Of a stretch of DNA of 12,875 nucleotides, positions 1,169 through 11,052 are shown piece after piece (position 1 is the stretch's first letter; each line of letters begins with the position of its first letter). A model generated the notes under the pieces. That model was not told where the DNA came from. It was given only the letters and a program-made list of their open reading frames with translations, and did no database searches. Position numbers and translations under genes: made by a program. Source of the DNA: Candidatus Sulfobium sp. (GTDB taxonomy: Bacteria; Nitrospirota; Thermodesulfovibrionia; Thermodesulfovibrionales; UBA6898); NCBI GenBank assembly GCA_037380845.1, contig JARRRI010000050.1:14883-27757 (forward strand), written 5' to 3'.

Positions 1169-2074
1169 ATGAAGATATGGGGTTTAAGAACAAGGTGGGG
1201 AAGCAAGAATAAAAAGACAGTATTTGCAGTCTGGGCAGTTGTATTTGGCTTGTGCCTGGCAGCCACGGCTTACAGTGCGCCTAAGCTGATTGTGAAGAAC
1301 GGCGATGGATCAGCGGATGTGTTTACAGTGGATTCTACAGGCGATATTTTTGCCGGCGGGACAGACGCAGTCAACGCTTTTCAGTTCCTCGTATCGGGTC
1401 ACACTGGCGGAGCGTCTCACTTACAGCTTACGACGAATCAAACCAACAGCAGGATCAGTCTAATAGCAAGCTCGTCAAATGACTTTGCCCCGCGTTTTCA
1501 GGCGGTTGGTCCTCAGGATACGGCCACGCCTGGCTGGGTTGTTTTCGACTATGGCTCAAACCTTTTCGATTTACCCTCTGCCGAATTCAGGTTGCGGCAC
1601 TATAGTACGTCAGGTGTCGTTAACATGATTAGAATTATAGGAGAAAATACGGTCTTATTTCCCACGGGAAATGTCGGCATAGGTGTGACGAGTCCGACTC
1701 ACTTGCTACAAGTGGGTGCCGGGGCCTATTCAGACGGCACGGGGTGGTATCCTGCCTGCAGCAGGGCCTATAAGGAAAATATCAAAGATCTTTCTGTTCA
1801 GGATGCCGTGAATACTTTGATGGGACTTACCCCTGTAACTTACAATTATAAGGTTGCTCCCGATAAAGAACGGGCGGGATTCATCGCGGAGGATGTGCCT
1901 GATCTCGTCGGAACAAAGGACAGAAAGAGCGTCGGCGAACTTGATGTTACTGCCGTGCTCACAAAGGTTGTACAGGAACAGCAAAGAATGATAGCTGAAC
2001 TTAAGGAAAAGGTGGCTGAACTGCAAAGAGAAGTAAAGATGAAAAACGGCTTTGCTTCACTAAACGCCAGATAG
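1169..2074 (+). CDS. Secreted tail-fibre-like protein with C-terminal peptidase S74/intramolecular chaperone domain
   Basis: Signal peptide (basic N-terminus, hydrophobic core, AYS-AP site), GNVGIG.TSP fibre motif, then CSRAYKENIKDL...L.PVTYNYK...GFIAEDVP and a C-terminal coiled coil; strong RBS. Confidence 0.85.
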   Translation: MKIWGLRTRWGSKNKKTVFAVWAVVFGLCLAATAYSAPKLIVKNGDGSADVFTVDSTGDIFAGGTDAVNAFQFLVSGHTGGASHLQLTTNQTNSRISLIASSSNDFAPRFQAVGPQDTATPGWVVFDYGSNLFDLPSAEFRLRHYSTSGVVNMIRIIGENTVLFPTGNVGIGVTSPTHLLQVGAGAYSDGTGWYPACSRAYKENIKDLSVQDAVNTLMGLTPVTYNYKVAPDKERAGFIAEDVPDLVGTKDRKSVGELDVTAVLTKVVQEQQRMIAELKEKVAELQREVKMKNGFASLNAR

Positions 2075-2114
2075 ACGAAGTAGCAATAATCTTCGGTGTG
2101 CTAATAAAGTTGAT

Positions 2115-2232
2115 GCAAGAAGTAAATTAGTGGAGGCAGTTGAGTAGTCAAGTACTTGATGACTTGCTGCTCAACTGCTTGACCTCTTGCCCAAGCGACT
2201 ACTTAACCACTTAATCATTCAACCACTCATTC
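2115..2232. repeat. Inverted and tandem 8-bp-period repeat region upstream of wzm (possible hairpin)
   Basis: GCAGTTGAG (2136-2144) pairs with CTCAACTGC (2170-2178); central palindrome TCAAGTACTTGA at 2148-2159; outer GCAAGA/TCTTGC; then acttaacc acttaatc attcaacc actcattc (2201-2232). Confidence 0.75.
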
Positions 2233-3081
2233 TTGTCTGATATTAACCAAGTCAATTTGAAATCAAAATTATCATATTTGGTGCGGGGGTTCGTGGACTT
2301 TCTGGCCACGCTCGTACGGCGTCGTTTTCTCATTTTCGAGATGGCGAGGAGGGACATTGCCACCCAGCACGTGGGTTCGATGCTGGGCTTCTTCTGGACT
2401 TTTATCAATCCGCTGATTACGATATTCATCTTCTGGCTCGTCTTCAGTGTCGGGTTTCGCATGAAGCCGAAACATAACGTTCCTTTTGTCGTATGGTTCA
2501 CTGCCGGTCTGGCGATATGGAGTACCTTCAGCGAGATCATCAACAGGTCGACCGGCATCATTATCGCGAACGCACCGCTGGTGAAGAAGGTAGTTTTTCC
2601 TCTCAGTATTCTTCCGGTAGTGAAGCTGGTGAGCTCATTCGTAACCCACATGGTCTTCCTGCTTCTGCTTGTCTGCCTTACACTTGCTTACAAAATGCCG
2701 TTCAGTATTTACTGGATCCAGGCTGTGTATTATTTCGCGGCAATGAGTGTTATGGCTCTCGGTCTGGGTTGGGTCACCTCCTCTATAAATGTTTTTGCGA
2801 GGGATACGGGACAGGTGGTCCAGCTTATGCTGCTCTTCGGTTTCTATCTGACCCCGATATTCTGGGACATCAGTATAATGCCAAAGAAAGCGCAGTTCTT
2901 TCTCAAACTGAACCCCATGTTTTACATCGTCCAGGGCTACCGCGATTCGTTCATCGATTTCGTACCTTTCTGGCATCACTGGCAGATGACTGTCTATTTC
3001 TGGGGTGTTGCCCTGTTCATCTTCGCGATCGGAGGAATCATCTTCCTGCGTCTCAGGCCACATTTTGCGGATGTATTGTGA
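2233..3081 (+). CDS. wzm: ABC-2 type polysaccharide export permease Wzm (start uncertain: 2233, 2257 or 2281)
   Basis: Hydrophobic 282 aa with RRDI...GSMLGFFWTFINPL, ANAPLVKKVVFP, FARD, FYLTPIFW, LNPMFYIVQGYR and terminal FADVL motifs. Confidence 0.95.
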   Translation: MSDINQVNLKSKLSYLVRGFVDFLATLVRRRFLIFEMARRDIATQHVGSMLGFFWTFINPLITIFIFWLVFSVGFRMKPKHNVPFVVWFTAGLAIWSTFSEIINRSTGIIIANAPLVKKVVFPLSILPVVKLVSSFVTHMVFLLLLVCLTLAYKMPFSIYWIQAVYYFAAMSVMALGLGWVTSSINVFARDTGQVVQLMLLFGFYLTPIFWDISIMPKKAQFFLKLNPMFYIVQGYRDSFIDFVPFWHHWQMTVYFWGVALFIFAIGGIIFLRLRPHFADVL

Positions 3082-3225
3082 GACCGGGACTCGGAACTTG
3101 TTACTCGGAACTGGGAAATAATAACGACAGGAAAGAGAGGGGAAATGGGGACCAGCGGCTGGGAACGACAGGCCTTTTTTGAAAAGACAGCCAGTGCCGC
3201 ATGCCCAGTCCCCAGTGCCGGTCTC
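3080..3225. repeat. Left flank of four-helix-bundle cassette: G-rich and C-rich 7-bp repeat arms forming an imperfect hairpin
   Basis: Heptamers actcgga acttgtt actcgga actggga (3089-3116); GAGACCGG (3080-3087) is the exact reverse complement of CCGGTCTC (3218-3225); C-rich arm at 3191-3225. Confidence 0.8.
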
Positions 3226-3228
3226 TAA

Positions 3229-3594
3229 ATGAAAGATCATAAAGAACTTGATGTATGGAAAAACAGCATGGATTTGGTTGCTCAGGTCTACTCGGTTACC
3301 CGTGAGTTTCCAAAAGAGGAGCTGTATGGACTTACGAACCAGATTCGAAGAGCGGCAGTATCGATCCCGTCCAACATCAGCGAAGGAGCAGCGCGAAACT
3401 CTGATAAGGAGTTTGTACAGTTTCTGCATGTCGCACTGGGCTCGGCTGCTGAGCTCGAAACGCAGCTACTCATTGCAAAGAGACTAAAATATATGAATCA
3501 GATCGATGTGTTGACTGATAACCTGAGTTCTGTTATGAAGATGCTTAGTGGACTTATTCGTCATTACAAGAAGAAGGCAGTGAACCGGGACTAG
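3229..3594 (+). CDS. Four helix bundle protein (23S rRNA intervening-sequence protein / Avd-like family)
   Basis: 121 aa with HKELDVWK..MDL...Y..T..FPKEELYGLTNQIRRAAVSIPSNISEG..R...EF.QFL..ALGS.AELETQL, the hallmark pattern of this family. Confidence 0.93.
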   Translation: MKDHKELDVWKNSMDLVAQVYSVTREFPKEELYGLTNQIRRAAVSIPSNISEGAARNSDKEFVQFLHVALGSAAELETQLLIAKRLKYMNQIDVLTDNLSSVMKMLSGLIRHYKKKAVNRD

Positions 3595-3627
3595 CGATCA
3601 GGGACAGGTAAAGAAGAAACGACGAAT

Positions 3628-5106
3628 ATGGAAAATAGCAAGAAATTATCAGCCACGAGTCACGAGTCACAGGTTCCGGGTCCCGAGTCCCGGATTACCA
3701 GTCCCCAGTCCCCGGTTACGAGTCCCGAAATTGCGATCAGTGTCCGCAATTTGTCTAAGAAATATCCCCTTTACGACAGCCCCCAGCACCGGCTTAGAGA
3801 GGCTCTTCATCCTTTCAGGAGGAAATATCACCGGGATTTCTGGGCCTTAAAGGATGTCTCTTTCGAGGTGAAGAAGGGCGAGAACATGGGCATCATGGGA
3901 AAGAACGGGTGCGGCAAATCGACGCTTCTGCAGATCATCTGCGGCGTGCTCCAGCCCTCGTTGGGCGACGTCCGGGTGAGGGGTTCGATATCAGCGCTTC
4001 TCGAACTCGGGTCGGGCTTCAATCCTGAATTTACCGGCAGGCAAAACGTATACATGAACGGGGCAATCAAGGGATTTACGAGGGAGCAGATTGACGAGAG
4101 GTTCGATGCCATTGCCGGTTTTGCGGACATAGGCCGCTTCATGGACCAGCCGGTAAAGACGTACTCAAGTGGAATGTATGTGAGGCTGGCTTTCGCCGCT
4201 GCGATAAATGTGGACCCGGACATCCTGGTGGTGGATGAGGCGCTGTCGGTTGGGGACGAGGCGTTCCAGCGCAAATGTTATGCGCGCATTCAGATGATCC
4301 AGGAACAGGGAAGCACCATACTTTTTGTTTCTCATAACGCATCGGCTGTAGTGGAGTTGTGCAAAAGCGCGATTCTCCTTGATCACGGTGAGCTTCTGTT
4401 GTCCGGAAAGCCGAAGCGTGTGGTGTCCAGATATCATAAGCTGCTTTATGCTCCTCCGGAAAGCATGGAGGCGCTGCGTGAGGAATATCGGCGGGAGCAG
4501 GTCAAGGGGACTGAAATTAAAAGAGGAGATGAAGATACATCGAAAGTGGCGTCGCCTAAAGATACGGCCGACGCGGAAGAGAGAAGTCCTGCTTTCGATC
4601 CTGCACTGGTGCCGAAAAGCACCGTTCAATACGAATCACGGGGAGCCCGTATTCTGAATCCCGGGATAACGACCCTCGATGGCGACCGGGTAAACATGCT
4701 GATTCATGGAGAGGAGTATATCTATCAGTACACTGTAAATTTTGAGGAGGAGGCATACAACGTCAGATTCGGCATGCTGATAAAGACGTTGAGAGGTCTC
4801 GAATTGGGCGGCATGGTTTCGCACACCGTCTCCGACGCCATTGAGTACGTGCACAAGAACGCCGTTGTCGAGGCGAGTTTCAAGTTCAAATGTCTGGTAG
4901 CGCCCGGCGTCTATTTTCTGAACGCCGGTCTTGTCGGGACCCGGGAGGGATCGGAGGTATATCTGCACAGGATCGTCGATGCCCTGATGTTCAGAGTTCA
5001 GCCGGAGCAAAGTCGGCTCGCAACCGGTACCGTTGATTTTTCAGTCGATGGAGAAAGCCCGAACGTACGTATATTATTGACTGAAGGAGTTATGACCGAT
5101 GAATGA
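3628..5106 (+). CDS. wzt: Polysaccharide ABC transporter ATP-binding protein Wzt with C-terminal (carbohydrate-binding-type) domain
   Basis: Walker A GKNGCGKS, signature YSSGM, Walker B ILVVDE, H-loop VSH, and a ~150-aa beta-rich C-terminal extension; follows wzm. Confidence 0.95.
   Translation: MENSKKLSATSHESQVPGPESRITSPQSPVTSPEIAISVRNLSKKYPLYDSPQHRLREALHPFRRKYHRDFWALKDVSFEVKKGENMGIMGKNGCGKSTLLQIICGVLQPSLGDVRVRGSISALLELGSGFNPEFTGRQNVYMNGAIKGFTREQIDERFDAIAGFADIGRFMDQPVKTYSSGMYVRLAFAAAINVDPDILVVDEALSVGDEAFQRKCYARIQMIQEQGSTILFVSHNASAVVELCKSAILLDHGELLLSGKPKRVVSRYHKLLYAPPESMEALREEYRREQVKGTEIKRGDEDTSKVASPKDTADAEERSPAFDPALVPKSTVQYESRGARILNPGITTLDGDRVNMLIHGEEYIYQYTVNFEEEAYNVRFGMLIKTLRGLELGGMVSHTVSDAIEYVHKNAVVEASFKFKCLVAPGVYFLNAGLVGTREGSEVYLHRIVDALMFRVQPEQSRLATGTVDFSVDGESPNVRILLTEGVMTDE
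3647..3730. repeat. Degenerate 7-bp tandem array of about 12 units inside the 5' end of wzt
   Basis: tatcagc cacgagt cacgagt cacaggt tccgggt cccgagt cccggat taccagt ccccagt ccccggt tacgagt cccgaaa; translates as SATSHESQVPGPESRITSPQSPVTSPE. Confidence 0.85.
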
Positions 5107-6478
5107 TCAAAACGAAAAGTCCAGAGCAATCTGTATACTTGGCATGCACCGAAGCGGCACGTCCGCGATCACGCGGGCGATAAACCTGCTTGGGGTATAT
5201 CTCGGCGAGGAGAAAGATATTTTTCCTGCGCTGGATTATAACCCGGAAGGGCTCTGGGAAAGGCGGGATTTCAATGACCTTCAGGGGAGGCTGCTGGCTG
5301 AGCTGAAGAGGACCTGGGACTTCGGGACGCCTCTGCCGGACGGGTGGCAGCAGGGGCCGGAAGTCAAACCTTTCAGGGACGAGTTGGTCTCTCTTATCAA
5401 GTCAAATTTTTCCGGCGTTCCTCTCTGGGGCTGGAAAGACCCGCGATCTACGATATTCATAGAGCTGTGGAAAGATGTCCTGAATGAGCTCGGGATAGGG
5501 CTGTCCGTCGTTTTTGCAGTGAGAAACCCTCTTGTCGTGGCGCGCTCTCTTCAGAGACGGGACGGATTCTCCCTCGATAAAGGCTTCGGTATCTGGTTCA
5601 GTTATAATATTGCCGCTCTGAGGTCAATAAAAGACATACCTGTGGCCTTCATTTCATATGATGGCTTTCTCGACGACTGGGAGCAGACACTGAAACGCAC
5701 TACCGATTGCCTGGCCATTGAGTGGCCGCAGGACACGGCAGGGCTTCGGGAAAAGATGGCTTCATTTATCAGGCCGGACCTCAGGCACAGTGAATCAACC
5801 GGAGAAGACCTGAAGAAAATTGGAGCCCCTGATCCTGTGAGGGAACTTGACGGGGTTCTGCGGCGTCTGCTGGCGGGTGAGCCCCTTGGTTCGTCGTCAA
5901 ATTGGACGACTGCCGAACGGCTGTGGGAGGCTTTTTCTTCCTATGCGAGATTCTATCAGTATGATATGACCGAAGTCTGGAAACGCAACGAGACTCTGGC
6001 CTTGCGGGAGGAGGAGGTGGCTGAAAGAGATCGTGTGTTAATTCAGAAAGGGCAAGAACTGGCCCGCAGGGAGGAGCAGCAAACTCAAAAGGAGAAAGAT
6101 CTGACTGAAAGGGAGCAGGAGCTGATTGAGAAAGGGCAGGAGTTCATTCAGAAAGGGCAGCAAATGATTCAGAAAGAACTGCGGCTGACCGAGAAGGAGT
6201 TGCAGGTGACTGAGAGAGAGATGCAGGTAGCCGAGGCAAATCGGCAGTTGCGACAAGTGGGCGAGATGGCCCGTCGGTTGGCCGAGCTGGACGGGCGGCT
6301 GGTCGAGATGGAACGTCAGTTGTCCGAAAAAGACCGGCGCTTGACGGAAAAGGCGAGGCTGCTGGACCAGAGAGAGCAGCGCGTCCATGATTTGATGAAT
6401 TCTTTGAGCTGGAAGATAACGGCCCCCCTTAGACGTCTGGCAGAGCCGTTTATCGGCAAGATAATGAGACATCATTGA
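5099..6478 (+). CDS. Sulfotransferase-family protein with long C-terminal coiled coil (WbdD-like architecture)
   Basis: PAPS-binding loop GMHRSGTS, WGWKDPR, RNPL..ARSL..R; heptad-repeat coil; C-terminal SLSWKITAPLR; overlaps wzt by 8 nt. Confidence 0.85.
   Translation: MNDQNEKSRAICILGMHRSGTSAITRAINLLGVYLGEEKDIFPALDYNPEGLWERRDFNDLQGRLLAELKRTWDFGTPLPDGWQQGPEVKPFRDELVSLIKSNFSGVPLWGWKDPRSTIFIELWKDVLNELGIGLSVVFAVRNPLVVARSLQRRDGFSLDKGFGIWFSYNIAALRSIKDIPVAFISYDGFLDDWEQTLKRTTDCLAIEWPQDTAGLREKMASFIRPDLRHSESTGEDLKKIGAPDPVRELDGVLRRLLAGEPLGSSSNWTTAERLWEAFSSYARFYQYDMTEVWKRNETLALREEEVAERDRVLIQKGQELARREEQQTQKEKDLTEREQELIEKGQEFIQKGQQMIQKELRLTEKELQVTEREMQVAEANRQLRQVGEMARRLAELDGRLVEMERQLSEKDRRLTEKARLLDQREQRVHDLMNSLSWKITAPLRRLAEPFIGKIMRHH
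5999..6250 (+). repeat. In-frame degenerate 21-bp tandem repeats (about 12 heptads) encoding the coiled coil
   Basis: e.g. attcagaaagggcaagaactg (6041), attgagaaagggcaggagttc (6125), attcagaaagggcagcaaatg (6146), attcagaaagaactgcggctg (6167). Confidence 0.8.
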
Positions 6479-6488
6479 TGGAAGTCAT

Positions 6489-7601
6489 ATGACACCAGAG
6501 AATCCTGAACTTAAGGCCCGGTTGATAGCATTCTATCTCCCGCAGTTCCACCCCATTCCTGAAAACGACGAATGGTGGGGCCCGGGCTTTACCGAGTGGA
6601 CCAACGTTGTCAGGGCGACGCCGCTTTTTGCGGGTCATCAGCAGCCTAACTTTCCGGCCGATCTCGGCTTTTACGACCTGCGGGTGGCCGAGTCACGGAT
6701 TGCCCAGGCGGAGCTTGCCGGCCGGTACGGCATCGAGGGGTTCTGCTACTGGCATTACTGGTTTGGCGGAAAACGCCTTCTGGAAAGACCGTTTGATGAA
6801 GTCCTCAAGTCCGGCGAGCCTGACTTTCCCTTCTGTCTCGCCTGGGCCAACCACACATGGTCCGGCATCTGGCACGGCTGCCCGGACCGGATACTGATTG
6901 AGCAGACTTATCCCGGAGTAGAGGACTTTACCGCCCACTTCTACGCCATGCTTGAGGCTTTTCGCGATAGGCGTTACATGAAGATCGACGGCAGGAACAT
7001 CTTCTGTGTTTATCGCCCGTTTGATCTCCGGGAGCCCCGGCTCTTTATGGACACCTGGCGGAAGCTGGCAGAGAGAGAAGGCGTCCCGGGGTTCTATTTC
7101 GTCGCCATTACGGACTATCCCTGGACGACACCGGGAGATGGCTACGATGCGTGCACGACGAATCCGCCGGTGGCGATGCTCACCTACCAGGGGATCAAGT
7201 CGATGAACGACCAGATCGTCAGGACACTCACGGACGAAAAGCCGTTGCTACCCCAGATTTACTCTTACGAAGCTTTCGTGCAAAATGCTTTCCCGACCAA
7301 GACACGCCGGGCGGAGTTCTACCCCTGTGTGGTACCTAACTGGGACAACACACCGCGCTCCGGAGTCAACGGCCTGGTGCTTCACGGTGCTACGCCTGAG
7401 CTTTATGCAGAACACCTCCGGGAAGCAGTAGGTCTCGTAGCTGACCGCGCTCCGGATCAGCGGGTTGTTTTTATCAAGTCCTGGAACGAGTGGGCCGAGA
7501 CGAACTATCTGGAGCCTGATTTGAGGTGGGGGAAATCGTATCTTGAAAAAACATCGTGTGTTATAAAGGTAGAGGAGGGGAAAGGTAGTAATGTCAGATA
7601 A
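6489..7601 (+). CDS. WbsX-family / glycoside hydrolase 99-like domain protein
   Basis: RLIAFYLPQFHPIPENDEWWG.GFTEW, DLGFYDLR, GFCYWHYWF, PFCLAWAN, PNWDNTPR, SWNEWAE..YLEPD motifs. Confidence 0.88.
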   Translation: MTPENPELKARLIAFYLPQFHPIPENDEWWGPGFTEWTNVVRATPLFAGHQQPNFPADLGFYDLRVAESRIAQAELAGRYGIEGFCYWHYWFGGKRLLERPFDEVLKSGEPDFPFCLAWANHTWSGIWHGCPDRILIEQTYPGVEDFTAHFYAMLEAFRDRRYMKIDGRNIFCVYRPFDLREPRLFMDTWRKLAEREGVPGFYFVAITDYPWTTPGDGYDACTTNPPVAMLTYQGIKSMNDQIVRTLTDEKPLLPQIYSYEAFVQNAFPTKTRRAEFYPCVVPNWDNTPRSGVNGLVLHGATPELYAEHLREAVGLVADRAPDQRVVFIKSWNEWAETNYLEPDLRWGKSYLEKTSCVIKVEEGKGSNVR

Positions 7602-10600
7602 AATCCGGTTCGTAATTATCGCTAACCCGAGGACGGGTACAAACCACTTGATCGACCTGCTCAACTCGCACCCGCACGTGACATGTCATCGGGAGGTTTT
7701 TCACCGGGATGCCGTATATCTGCTTGAAGGGACAAGAACGGACCTTGTCGGCAAACGAAACCAGGATCCGCTAGCCTTTCTTCAGGAACTCTACGATTCC
7801 AGTCCCACTCGGGCTTGCGGGTTCAAGATTTTCATGGAGCATAACGACAATGTGCTTCAAGCTGTCCTGCGCGACCGCCGCATTAAAAAAATTGTCCTTT
7901 ACCGCTCAAACCCTCTGGCAGTCTATTCGTCCGACAAAATAGCGGCAGCCGAGAATCGTTATCTGATTATGGAGAAGACTCGTGACAGGATCGACGCCGG
8001 AGCGAAAGACGGGTCACGCACCAAGGCTAAAGCGGCCTTTGATCGCGAAAAATTTGAGCTTTACTGGCGGGCCTATCAAGCTCACTATTCGCACGTGATC
8101 GATGTTCTGAATGAGACTAATCAGGACTATCTGTTCATGACTTATGAGGACTATATCAATGAGAGCCTTTTCAGGAGGGTGTTTCCGTTTCTTGGGCTGT
8201 CTCAACCGGTAGAGCTCCATACCCGCATGAAGAAGATGAACGCCAGCGATATCTTGTCTCGCTTTGTCAACGCGGATGAAGTTCGTGCGTATCTGAATGA
8301 AATCGGAAAACAGAATTGGGCGCAAGAGGCCTTCATGCTTTGGGCGCGGCCAGCAGGTGCAAGGAAGGCTGTTGACGAAGCTGCTATGACGTCAGTTCGC
8401 GGGAGCGAGCAGCACAAAGAGATTGTACGAGGGCCAGTTAGCGACTCCGATGAAAAAAAGGGAGCTGTAGAGAGATTGAAACCTGCCTTAACCGCTGGAG
8501 AAAGAAGGCAGACGCTTCTTTTTGTGGATTACGCAGTCCCTCATTACGACATGTTTGCCGGATCGCGGACAAACCTCATGTATCTTACCCTGCTGCTTAA
8601 GATGGGGCTGGACGTAAAATTGTTGCCGGCCGACTTCCGGCGGGTGGAACCGTATTCGTCCGAGCTGAATCAAAGGGGAATTGAAACGCTGGACGGCGAG
8701 TGGTACCGCGACAACTGGGAACGCTGGCTTCGGGACAACGGGCGGGAGATTGACTATGTCTTTTTTCACAAGCCCGATCCCGCGATGAAATTTCTGGACG
8801 CCGTCAAGCGGTATACCTCGGCTGCAATCATCTACCAGTGTCACGATCTCCATTACCTGAGGCTTCAGCGAAATGGTCAGGTGAAGAATGACGAATTGAT
8901 ACTTGCTAAAGCCGACCTTTATGAAAAGAAAGAAGATTACATATTTTCCAGCAGCGACGTTATCCTGACGTTCAGCGGGGTGGAGGAGAAAATGATCAGG
9001 GAGAAATTCCCGGATAAACAGGTTTTCACGGTCCCCCTGTTTTTTTACGAGGATGTGCCGGCACCTTGTCGTGATTTCGGCAAACGTCAGGATCTGTTGT
9101 TTGTGGGCGGCTTTGCTCATACACCCAACCGGGATGCTGTTTCCTGGTTTTCTACGGAGGTGCTTCCCCTCATAAGGCGAGAGATCCCGAAGATCGTTTT
9201 CAATGTAGTGGGTGCGGACCCCCCCAAAGATATTATGGCCCTGCGGTCGAAAAACGTGAGGATTCTTGGCAGGGTCAGCGAAGCGAAACTCAAAGAACTT
9301 TATGATACCGTCAGGCTTGTGGTGATTCCCCTGAGGTTCGGCGCGGGTGTGAAGGGGAAGACGGTCGAGGCGCTGTATTACGGCGCGCCGGTTGTTTCGA
9401 CTTCCGTAGGACTGGAGGGTATCAAGGGGATAGACCAGATATGCGCCGCAAAGGACGATCCGGCGGGATTCGCGGGTCAGGTCGTTTCATTATACGGAGA
9501 CGAGAAGAAGCTGGCGGAAATTAGCGAGCAAGGGGTATCTTTCGTCGCGGAGAATTTCACATCGCAAAAGGCTGCCGAACTGATGAGCGACGTCCTTTCT
9601 TCTGCCGGGAAGGAAGTGGCCGCGAGGATCTCAGCTTCGTCGTCGGCGAGGGTTAAAGAGGAGACCCCCCGGCTGATTGCCTTCTACCTCCCCCAGTACC
9701 ACCCGATCCCGGAGAACGACGAGTGGTGGGGAAAGGGTTTTACCGAGTGGCGCAACGTCGCGAAGGCGACGCCGCTCTTTAATGGGCACTACCAGCCGCA
9801 CATTCCCGCCGATCTGGGCTTCTATGACCTGAGGCTGGAAGATACGCGAATAGCCCAGGCGGAACTCGCACGGGAATACGGCATATACGGTTTTTGTTAT
9901 TATCATTACTGGTTCAACGGAAAGAGACTCCTGGAAAGACCCCTCAACGATATGCTCAAGTCAGGGAAACCGGATTTCCCCTTTTGTGTCTGCTGGGCCA
10001 ACGAAAATTGGACCAGACGATGGGACGGTGAAGACCGGCATATTTTGATGAAAGTGGAGTACAGCGAGGAGGATGACCGGAGACACATCCGTGAGCTCTT
10101 GACAATATTCGAGGATAGCCGTTACATCAGGATCAACGGTAAGCCTCTTTTCCTGGTCTACCGAACGGAGAACATCCCGGACCCTCGAAGGACAGCCGAG
10201 GTCTGGCGGGAAGAGGCGCGGAAGGCCGGTGTTGGTGAGCTTTACCTGGTAAGGGTCGAGAGTATTGGAAAAACTGATCCGCGGAGCATCGGCTTCGACG
10301 CCGCCCTTGAATTTGCGCCTGACTGGAACAATAAGGGATTCAGGGTACGGGCGAACAATAAGAAACTCAATGGAAGACTTAGTGACGTTGAGATTCCGGA
10401 CGACTTATGTGAAAAGAACTACGTCCACTATTACGACGAATTAGCGAATAATATGATGAAGAAGAAGTCTCCGGATTATACATGGTTCCGCTGCGTCACG
10501 CCATCATGGGACAATACGGCGAGAAGGCTGGAAGGCGCGCATATTTTCCTCGGCTCCAGTCCGGAGAAATATCAAAACTGGCTCAGGCAGGCCATGGATT

Positions 10601-11052
10601 TTACAAGGGACCGCTTGAAAGGGGATGAGAATGTTGTTTTCGTCAACGCGTGGAATGAATGGGCGGAAGGAAATCATCTGGAACCCGACCGGCAGTTCGG
10701 GAAATCGTACCTGGAGGCGACTCGCAGAGCGCTGGAAGGAGCGACATTTGGGCTGGATGGGGCGTCAATAACGGCAGCTTACGATTCGCCCCTCCCGCGT
10801 TTCGTTGACGATGGCGGGCGGGAATTATTTCCTGAACTTCAAAAATTGCTGAAAGACCGGCGGGAGAGAATAGGCCGACTGGAGGTGAGGCTTGCCGAGA
10901 AAGACCGGCTCCTGGAAAAATGTGAGTTCCGGATTTTAGACAGGGAGGCCCGTATTCGTGACCTTCTCGATTCCGCAAGTTGGCGAGTGACCAGACCTTT
11001 GCGTCGTACATACGATATAATGCTAAAGGCGAGGGGGAAGAGTCTCGACTAA
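7591..11052 (+). CDS. Multidomain glycan synthesis protein: Stf0-like sulfotransferase + GT4 glycosyltransferase + WbsX/GH99-like domain + short coiled coil
   Basis: PRTGTNHL..LLNSHP (sulfotransferase, ~7591-8340); FVGGFAHTPNRDAV and PLRFGAGVKGK.VEA (GT4, ~8510-9600); RLIAFYLPQ...AWNEWAEG (~9667-10735); C-terminal SASWRVTRPLR. Confidence 0.88.
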   Translation: MSDKIRFVIIANPRTGTNHLIDLLNSHPHVTCHREVFHRDAVYLLEGTRTDLVGKRNQDPLAFLQELYDSSPTRACGFKIFMEHNDNVLQAVLRDRRIKKIVLYRSNPLAVYSSDKIAAAENRYLIMEKTRDRIDAGAKDGSRTKAKAAFDREKFELYWRAYQAHYSHVIDVLNETNQDYLFMTYEDYINESLFRRVFPFLGLSQPVELHTRMKKMNASDILSRFVNADEVRAYLNEIGKQNWAQEAFMLWARPAGARKAVDEAAMTSVRGSEQHKEIVRGPVSDSDEKKGAVERLKPALTAGERRQTLLFVDYAVPHYDMFAGSRTNLMYLTLLLKMGLDVKLLPADFRRVEPYSSELNQRGIETLDGEWYRDNWERWLRDNGREIDYVFFHKPDPAMKFLDAVKRYTSAAIIYQCHDLHYLRLQRNGQVKNDELILAKADLYEKKEDYIFSSSDVILTFSGVEEKMIREKFPDKQVFTVPLFFYEDVPAPCRDFGKRQDLLFVGGFAHTPNRDAVSWFSTEVLPLIRREIPKIVFNVVGADPPKDIMALRSKNVRILGRVSEAKLKELYDTVRLVVIPLRFGAGVKGKTVEALYYGAPVVSTSVGLEGIKGIDQICAAKDDPAGFAGQVVSLYGDEKKLAEISEQGVSFVAENFTSQKAAELMSDVLSSAGKEVAARISASSSARVKEETPRLIAFYLPQYHPIPENDEWWGKGFTEWRNVAKATPLFNGHYQPHIPADLGFYDLRLEDTRIAQAELAREYGIYGFCYYHYWFNGKRLLERPLNDMLKSGKPDFPFCVCWANENWTRRWDGEDRHILMKVEYSEEDDRRHIRELLTIFEDSRYIRINGKPLFLVYRTENIPDPRRTAEVWREEARKAGVGELYLVRVESIGKTDPRSIGFDAALEFAPDWNNKGFRVRANNKKLNGRLSDVEIPDDLCEKNYVHYYDELANNMMKKKSPDYTWFRCVTPSWDNTARRLEGAHIFLGSSPEKYQNWLRQAMDFTRDRLKGDENVVFVNAWNEWAEGNHLEPDRQFGKSYLEATRRALEGATFGLDGASITAAYDSPLPRFVDDGGRELFPELQKLLKDRRERIGRLEVRLAEKDRLLEKCEFRILDREARIRDLLDSASWRVTRPLRRTYDIMLKARGKSLD

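Follow-up and report, generated by a model that had tools for sequence, protein, structure and literature searches.

A PF05635 four-helix-bundle gene between inverted heptamer arrays at a wzm–wzt junction: a candidate DNA-level cassette

Results

Organization of the locus

The DNA analysed here (the window) is a stretch of 12,875 nt from Candidatus Sulfobium sp. (assembly GCA_037380845.1, contig JARRRI010000050.1, positions 14,883 to 27,757), in which the genes wzm and wzt are separated by a gene for a four-helix-bundle protein bracketed by complementary heptamer arrays. The gene and its arrays, referred to below as the cassette and its arms, are the subject of this report. All the features of the locus are read on the + strand. 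The host gene wzm (2233–3081) was called as an open reading frame (ORF) for an ABC-2 permease (PF01061), with an uncertain start codon. Its stop codon abuts a G-rich arm (G1, 3080–3116) of degenerate GGGACTC-type heptamers, which is followed by a C-rich arm (C1, 3191–3225), the four-helix gene (3229–3594, 121 aa), a second G-rich arm (G2, 3580–3607), which overlaps the stop codon of the four-helix gene, and a second C-rich arm (C2, 3647–3730). The order is thus G, C, gene, G, C, all between wzm and wzt, the last arm lying within the wzt reading frame. C2 consists of about 10 heptamers (a tandem-repeat scan gave a period-7 array of 10.4 copies at 3656–3728) and ends where the conserved Wzt sequence begins. 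wzt itself (3628–5106) encodes an ABC ATPase with a Wzt_C domain (PF00005/PF14524), and its first 33 codons form an arm-derived tail. Four arms and a gene in this layout had been described in an earlier reading of the window from its sequence (the original prediction), which is borne out, with the addition of a short G-rich run at 3146–3168 seen on inspection of repeats and folds.

A promoter scan of 2000–3900 gave no sites, no terminator-like site was found within the cassette, and an Rfam scan gave no matches. The four-helix gene has no Shine–Dalgarno-like site. A 27-codon ORF (3145–3228) that does have one ends with its stop codon directly before the four-helix ATG. It was considered as a coupling device and set aside: it is not conserved in the related locus L156 (L numbers are codes of the homologous or relative loci compared with the window) and is therefore probably incidental.

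The four-helix protein

The assignment of the protein to its family is secure, with scores of 135 bits for PF05635 (cut-off 33.8) and 134 bits for TIGR02436 (cut-off 24), both above the curated cut-offs. It matches the sequence of Xcc0516 (2gsc) with an E value of 9e-28. The predicted model has four helices with a predicted local distance difference test score (pLDDT) of 93, and a TM-score of 0.89 to 2gsc and about 0.76 to Avd, the accessory protein of diversity-generating retroelements (DGR). Like Xcc0516, BT_0352 (2rld) and Avd (4dwl, 8ub7), it is a four-helix bundle, and the relation to Avd that had been suggested holds as a structural kinship, more distant than that to Xcc0516. Unlike Avd, it scores below the cut-off of the Avd profile NF033474 (24.3 versus 80 bits), and no reverse transcriptase is present among the 11 window ORFs scanned for domains. 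2gsc is a pentamer (PMC4990558; this and the other papers are cited here from the parts of their text that were available), and by analogy the protein here is likely to be pentameric. Comparison with L156 gave a non-synonymous divergence (dN) of 0.038 and a synonymous divergence (dS) of 0.60, so that the protein is under purifying selection.

No transposase is encoded in the cassette; a partner acting in trans was not searched for. Six peptide patterns found no relative in viral contigs. A tree of 39 close homologs left 19 of 36 forks open, and was not used to order events.

Pairing and folding of the arms

The original prediction started from the complementarity of 3085–3107 and 3663–3685, given as 20 of 23 positions with two of the three differences being G-U pairs. 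This was reproduced as 20 Watson–Crick pairs, 2 wobble pairs and 1 mismatch. The helix was proposed to loop out the whole gene. The minimum-energy fold does loop the gene out, but by pairing 3085–3098 with 3714–3727, and imposing the proposed register makes it 10.9 kcal/mol less stable than the best fold. The best inverted repeat of the window likewise joins G1 and C2 in another register (3085–3117 with 3695–3727). A 17-bp helix containing wobbles is possible between the outer arms, and the longest pure Watson–Crick run is 6 bp. The expectation that the fold would beat shuffled sequence was upheld against shuffled bases, where none of 500 shuffles was as stable as the G1/C2 helix and none of 20 as stable as the whole region (z = −2.0). 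It was not upheld when whole heptamer units were shuffled: 98 of 1000 such sequences were as stable, so that the helix is not clearly better than its repeat composition would give.

Folding the arms in isolation joins G1 to C1 and G2 to C2. The local fold of 3075–3091 with 3214–3230 has a mean pair probability of 0.91, and the ends of G1 and C1 form a perfect 8-bp inverted repeat (3080–3087 with 3218–3225). Because of this local pairing and the matching ends, we describe the gene as flanked by two hairpin units; the long-range pairing of G1 with C2 arises because both units use one repeat. Strong predicted pairing surrounds the start codon of wzt, which at 3628 lies inside the loop of the second unit, 5′ of C2.

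Arm C2 is translated

Starts of wzt were compared in 16 distinct loci. In eight of them (this window, L005, L007, L009, L104, L156, L169 and L171) the nearest in-frame ATG is 20–49 codons before the conserved Wzt sequence, with no intervening GTG or TTG; in the remaining eight it is 2–3 codons before it. Among the four closest orthologs, the insertions or deletions in C2 measure 21 and 42 nt, equal to three and six heptamers, and all of them keep the frame. The non-coding sequence upstream of the four-helix gene is freely variable in length among orthologs (34–178 nt). In this window the ancestral wzt ATG has become ACG, and an ACG two codons further on has become ATG. It is concluded from the frame-keeping indels and the re-made start codon that C2 is translated.

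This bears directly on the proposal that the cassette is removed from the mRNA like the intervening sequences (IVS) of 23S rRNA. The wzt start is upstream of C2, and therefore a cut in C2 would remove it; no wzt start codon follows C2, so that the host gene would not be functional after removal. Since C2 is translated as the front of Wzt, and the helix is not clearly better than unit shuffles, excision from the mRNA is probably not what happens here, and the proposal is not supported for this site. An RNase III gene is encoded in the genome. In L042, L176 and L178 an ATG follows the arm, and cutting there would therefore be harmless.

Three other ideas about this junction were tried and rejected. 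A 3′ arm that replaces the Shine–Dalgarno sequence is not supported (a Shine–Dalgarno-like site is found near 5 of 26 starts versus 36% of 1328 control genes, p = 0.10), nor is duplication of a stop codon before the next ATG (18 of 26 versus 58% of controls), both tests being crude and not significant, and there is no evidence for a Wzm–Wzt fusion by ribosome hopping. As separate observations, the first four residues of L007 Wzt are identical to those of the four-helix protein, and in L006 wzt apparently starts at an ATG inside a four-helix remnant.

Mismatches between the arms

Selection for a stem in the sense RNA predicts that G·U exceeds A·C among the mismatches between arms. Across the family the ratio of G·U to A·C was 43:57 (92 of the 119 loci described below), or 178:208 in gapped alignments of 98 loci, and in six orthologs of this site it was 10:10. 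The tRNA stems of the genome itself, used as a positive control, gave 23:2 (36 of 37 tRNAs; Fisher p = 8e-6); they replaced terminator-like hairpins, which had provided 3 informative mismatches only. The wobble pairs that had been taken as a sign of an RNA helix are thus not in excess, either across the family or at this site. The result fits symmetric DNA ends or unselected arms, and occasional cleavage of untranslated mRNA would still be compatible with it.

Arms are a trait of the family

From 155 loci, 133 had a full-length profile hit, and 119 remained after dropping duplicates and flanks shorter than 300 nt. Flanks were counted as complementary if they had a score of at least 32 under neutral scoring, which is above the 95th percentile of non-cognate pairs. 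By this measure 98 of the 119 PF05635 loci have complementary flanks, as against 27 of 2596 ORFs from the genome of the window, two of the 27 being the other PF05635 genes of that genome (the gene of the window was not among the top-listed armed ORFs, and was probably dropped by an overlap filter). The arms expected around homologs of the family are therefore present. The period is 7 in 73 of the 98 armed loci, and 69 of the 119 have a simple two-arm form; extra arms occur here and in L078, L156 and L169, at the wzm site. The purine-rich arm comes first in 84 of 98, but this order is uninformative on strand, because an inverted pair reads alike on both strands. The 5′ arm starts within 20 nt of the upstream stop codon in 61 of 93 loci, a count made without a null comparison.

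The three PF05635 paralogs of the genome each have their own repeat unit and their own matching arms. The second has 6-mer arms (contig C44, 36745–37173) and lies among what we take to be molybdenum-cofactor-like genes, while a broken third copy has other arms (contig C44, 28400–29000). An empty hairpin of the 6-mer unit is found on contig C6 (47870–48001). Arms were cross-compatible in 0.7% of 1241 pairs of loci with less than 40% protein identity and in 86% of 36 pairs with at least 70%, although these pairs are not independent. Protein similarity therefore predicts the repeat unit, and this extends across phyla: Geobacter homologs with 68% identity have the same unit at other sites. The locus-specific covariation of arms that had been proposed as a check was not seen at orthologs of this junction, where complementarity sorts by unit type and not by locus, and where arms pair no better with each other than with orthologs' arms of like unit.

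Arrays of 6–9-mers are numerous in the genome, most without a PF05635 gene, and other small genes are also armed. On the same contig (C50), a series of 8-mer arrays and 9-mer inverted arms occupies gene junctions at 1944–14883 and at 60–170 of the window, and a gene at 13184–13570 of the contig, presumably GxxExxY-like, lies between 9-mer arms. In L021 a PF05635 gene with heptamer arms is found amid repeated CRISPR-like units; the family occurs in cas loci (PMC3936711).

Turnover at the wzm stop codon

Among 317 genomes of the order, 18 have a close wzm, of which 17 are readable downstream, and their states were classed by eye. Four have a full-length four-helix gene, three with the present unit (one of them with a changed ATG) and one with a GTGAAT-type unit. 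Another four have relics or interrupted copies, one has arms and other genes, one has such genes without arms, and seven have no insert, including the pristine stop–start junction of L184. These genes in the two relatives are, judging by their motifs, presumably toxin–antitoxin-like. Metagenome data provided 20 further loci, of which four were cut before the end of wzm and three were distant. In the 13 that were close and readable, four have this subfamily, two have other PF05635 genes with other units, one has a relic, five have arms without a PF05635 gene, and one has no arms. One of the five has, within 9-mer arms, a gene fragment that we take to be GxxExxY-like. In L159 the same cassette runs into a different downstream gene, which we assume to be glycosyltransferase-like, and the arm is again translated.

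Well-supported sisters in the wzm tree differ in the content of the junction (L157 and L158, L163 and L165, with L159 beside them). That tree was built quickly from 35 rows; it has several long branches, and 17 of its 32 forks are open. When L156 was compared with both L005 and this window, it was closer to L005 over wzm (129 versus 68 sites) and closer to the window from the four-helix gene onward (245 versus 102 sites after 3100; sites are not independent), with the switch at about 3100–3200. One crossover thus maps to the first hairpin. The insert-free junctions that had been anticipated in relatives are therefore found, and gain and loss at the junction, with no transposase in the cassette, agree with the suggestion of a mobile cassette lacking its own transposase.

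A gene-less hairpin of 8-mers (2126–2235, fold −34.5 kcal/mol) stands before wzm and matches the arm of L166, in which a PF05635 gene between 8-mer arms lies directly before wzm in the same position. From this resemblance the hairpin is likely to be what remains of a second cassette of this family, one built on a different repeat unit. In L158 the PF05635 gene lies after wzm.

Comparison with known systems

Repetitive extragenic palindromes with their associated transposases (REP/RAYT), miniature inverted-repeat transposable elements (MITE) and integron cassettes also place hairpin units at gene junctions, occur filled or empty, and change their cargo at one site. Terminal inverted repeats, as in MITE and insertion sequences, are present here in the perfect 8-bp ends of G1–C1 and the degenerate arms. 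Unlike those systems, the cassette has no transposase, recombinase or known site that we could see, and no Rfam match; its arms are degenerate tandem arrays with a unit that differs by subfamily, and no clear target duplication was found.

The helix 45 IVS of Coxiella burnetii encodes the same protein family, with heptamer repeats upstream of the ORF, and RNase III cleaves its 28-bp terminal stem (PMC4990558). The ORF-bearing 23S rRNA IVS of Coxiella and Leptospira described there resemble the cassette in that complementary termini enclose the gene, although here the complementarity is generic to the repeat unit. In contrast to them, the cassette lies in a protein-coding operon, between PF01061 and PF00005/PF14524 genes, and has four arms, one of which is translated into the next gene, so that excision would harm this site. 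The Coxiella ORF is described as decaying (PMC4990558), whereas the protein here is under selection. The cassette is IVS-like in build, and does not belong to the IVS.

In Xanthomonas and Nostoc, GGGAATC and GGGGA(C/T)T heptamers occur after stops and before starts, with 70 inverted pairs in Xcc (PMC4692102). The unit is nearly the same as here, and so are the G-rich run after a stop, the C-rich run before a start, the co-oriented genes and the frequent inverted pairs. One GGGAATC array begins 6 nt beyond the stop codon of bccP and extends over the XCC0516 start (PMC4692102, supplement 2, row 15); in the available parts of that paper, XCC0516 is a neighbour in a supplementary table, with no main-text mention and no partner arm listed. 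Paired heptamer and octamer arrays in Geobacter metallireducens have been read as regulator sites (PMC2700814), and 12 of the 19 supplementary files of that paper make no mention of S23 or intervening sequences. TAACTGA repeats precede starts in another study (PMC4679880), in whose accessible text the PF05635 family is unmentioned. As far as their available text goes, these three papers give repeats without a cognate gene, unlike the cassette here.

Discussion

The reading that we favour, and that we consider to have an even chance of being correct, is that this is a DNA-level cassette in which two inverted-heptamer hairpins surround a gene. The cassette would be read through with its operon and exchanged at its arms, and its protein would probably recognize its own repeat unit. 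A gene cassette without a promoter-like site, belonging to a PF05635-plus-heptamer-arm family, would have settled directly after the wzm stop codon. The operon would most likely be transcribed straight through and remain uncut, with wzt initiating at 3628 and the ribosome reading C2 as a dispensable tail. The arms would behave as symmetric DNA ends and act at the level of DNA. Cassettes would be gained, replaced and lost at operon gene junctions, leaving empty hairpins; the probable route is recombination by the host, or template switching, via the arms. The pentamer would probably recognize its own unit and so favour its spread.

Several observations weigh against this. No recent, near-identical pair of filled and empty sites was found, and no target-site duplication was found here, the test across the family being not significant (TAA stands on both sides in L178, as against the pristine TAA-ATG of L184, but this may be chance). 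Mobility is therefore read from patchy states among loci whose genes are 54–79% identical. The closest relatives are filled or have internal deletions (L006, L009), which fits vertical decay, and four DNA runs gave no joint that skips the cassette (in contigs only, from which rare variants are dropped). The window's own unit is found nowhere else in the genome, so that the protein is not visibly seeding copies there, and many array types in the genome have no matching PF05635 gene. Only at 43 of 119 loci does the locus's own arm outrank every other arm as a partner. Plain co-inheritance would likewise produce the correlation of protein with unit, and related loci are not independent. The lack of a G·U excess might also reflect a simple absence of selection on the arms once they are in place. 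The protein shares its fold with Avd, an RNA-binding relative, and we know of no catalytic site in the family.

The last of these kinships suggests an alternative, in which the pentamer binds the arms in the intact mRNA, as Avd binds its stem-loop, and sets the pairing of G1 or G2 with C2, thereby tuning translation of wzt or decay of untranslated mRNA. Avd, as a pentamer, contacts a stem-loop that has flipped-out bases (10.1101/2023.10.23.563531), and in Xanthomonas the starts or ends of transcripts fall more often at such repeats (PMC4692102). The selection on the protein, the pairing around the wzt start and the frequent position of the 5′ arm just after a stop codon (the count lacking a null) are also in keeping with regulation. 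On the other hand, a regulatory stem should leave a G·U excess on the sense strand and locus-specific covariation, neither of which is present; the junction also functions when it holds other units, other cargo or no insert at all, the leader ORF is not conserved, and the Shine–Dalgarno and stop–start tests were not significant. We regard regulation as unlikely, while giving it real weight. IVS-like excision, in which RNase III would cleave a stem formed by G1 and C2 and so release the gene, as in 23S rRNA, we consider very improbable. It has the Coxiella precedent (PMC4990558), an RNase III in the genome, the wobble-containing helix with a minimum-energy fold that loops the gene out, and three loci where it would do no harm. 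It would nevertheless part wzt from a start that selection has kept, translating ribosomes would be expected to melt C2, and the short Watson–Crick runs, the unit shuffles and the mismatch ratio all fail to reveal an RNA stem.

A further alternative, which appears to us decidedly unlikely, is that the arms are no more than neutral repeat litter whose complementarity is maintained by template switching, and that an ordinary accessory gene hitchhikes in a recombination-prone glycan locus. The abundance of arrays with no PF05635 gene, the armed small genes of other kinds and the ordinary stability of the G1/C2 helix among unit shuffles would all be accounted for, and template switching is said to homogenize inverted arms. 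Such litter should not, however, be concentrated at PF05635 genes (98 of 119 loci as against 27 of 2596 ORFs), follow the protein subfamily across phyla as far as Geobacter, or be confined in this genome, for the window's unit, to this one gene.

As a more speculative extension, which we think unlikely, though by no means remote, as a whole, PF05635 pentamers could be sequence-specific spreaders of their own heptamer hairpins. They would form a transposase-free family with filled and empty forms, which would account for the unexplained 7–8-mer inverted arrays of many bacteria, provide crossover points that shuffle the genes of glycan loci, give rise to ORF-bearing rRNA IVS on landing in rRNA, and be the source of the Avd of DGR.

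The gene with its arms is a widespread packaging of a known protein family, apparently undescribed for operons: the design was not found stated in the literature consulted, which was mostly non-subscription. It links a widespread family of unknown function to heptamer repeats that were published without a cause. Given a translated arm and no signature of an RNA stem, the arms cannot in general serve for excision by RNase III, and the rRNA intervening sequences would then represent a special case of landing. That cassettes turn over at a single wzm stop codon, and that a crossover lies in the first hairpin, suggests a route by which surface-glycan loci are reshuffled.

Other genes in the window

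A small ORF and a PemK/MazF-like toxin gene (231–846) are likely to be a type II toxin–antitoxin pair, and 1169–2074 encodes a protein that is likely to be secreted and carries a Peptidase_S74 intramolecular chaperone domain at its C terminus. Downstream of wzt, a 459-aa ORF (5099–6478) has no Pfam hit and ends in 21-nt repeats that encode a coiled-coil-like stretch; we presume that it resembles a sulfotransferase with a chain-length ruler. Two WbsX glycosyltransferase domains at 6489–11052 are 73% alike over 300 nt, and one of them is part of a 1153-aa fusion with sulfotransferase-like and GT1 domains.

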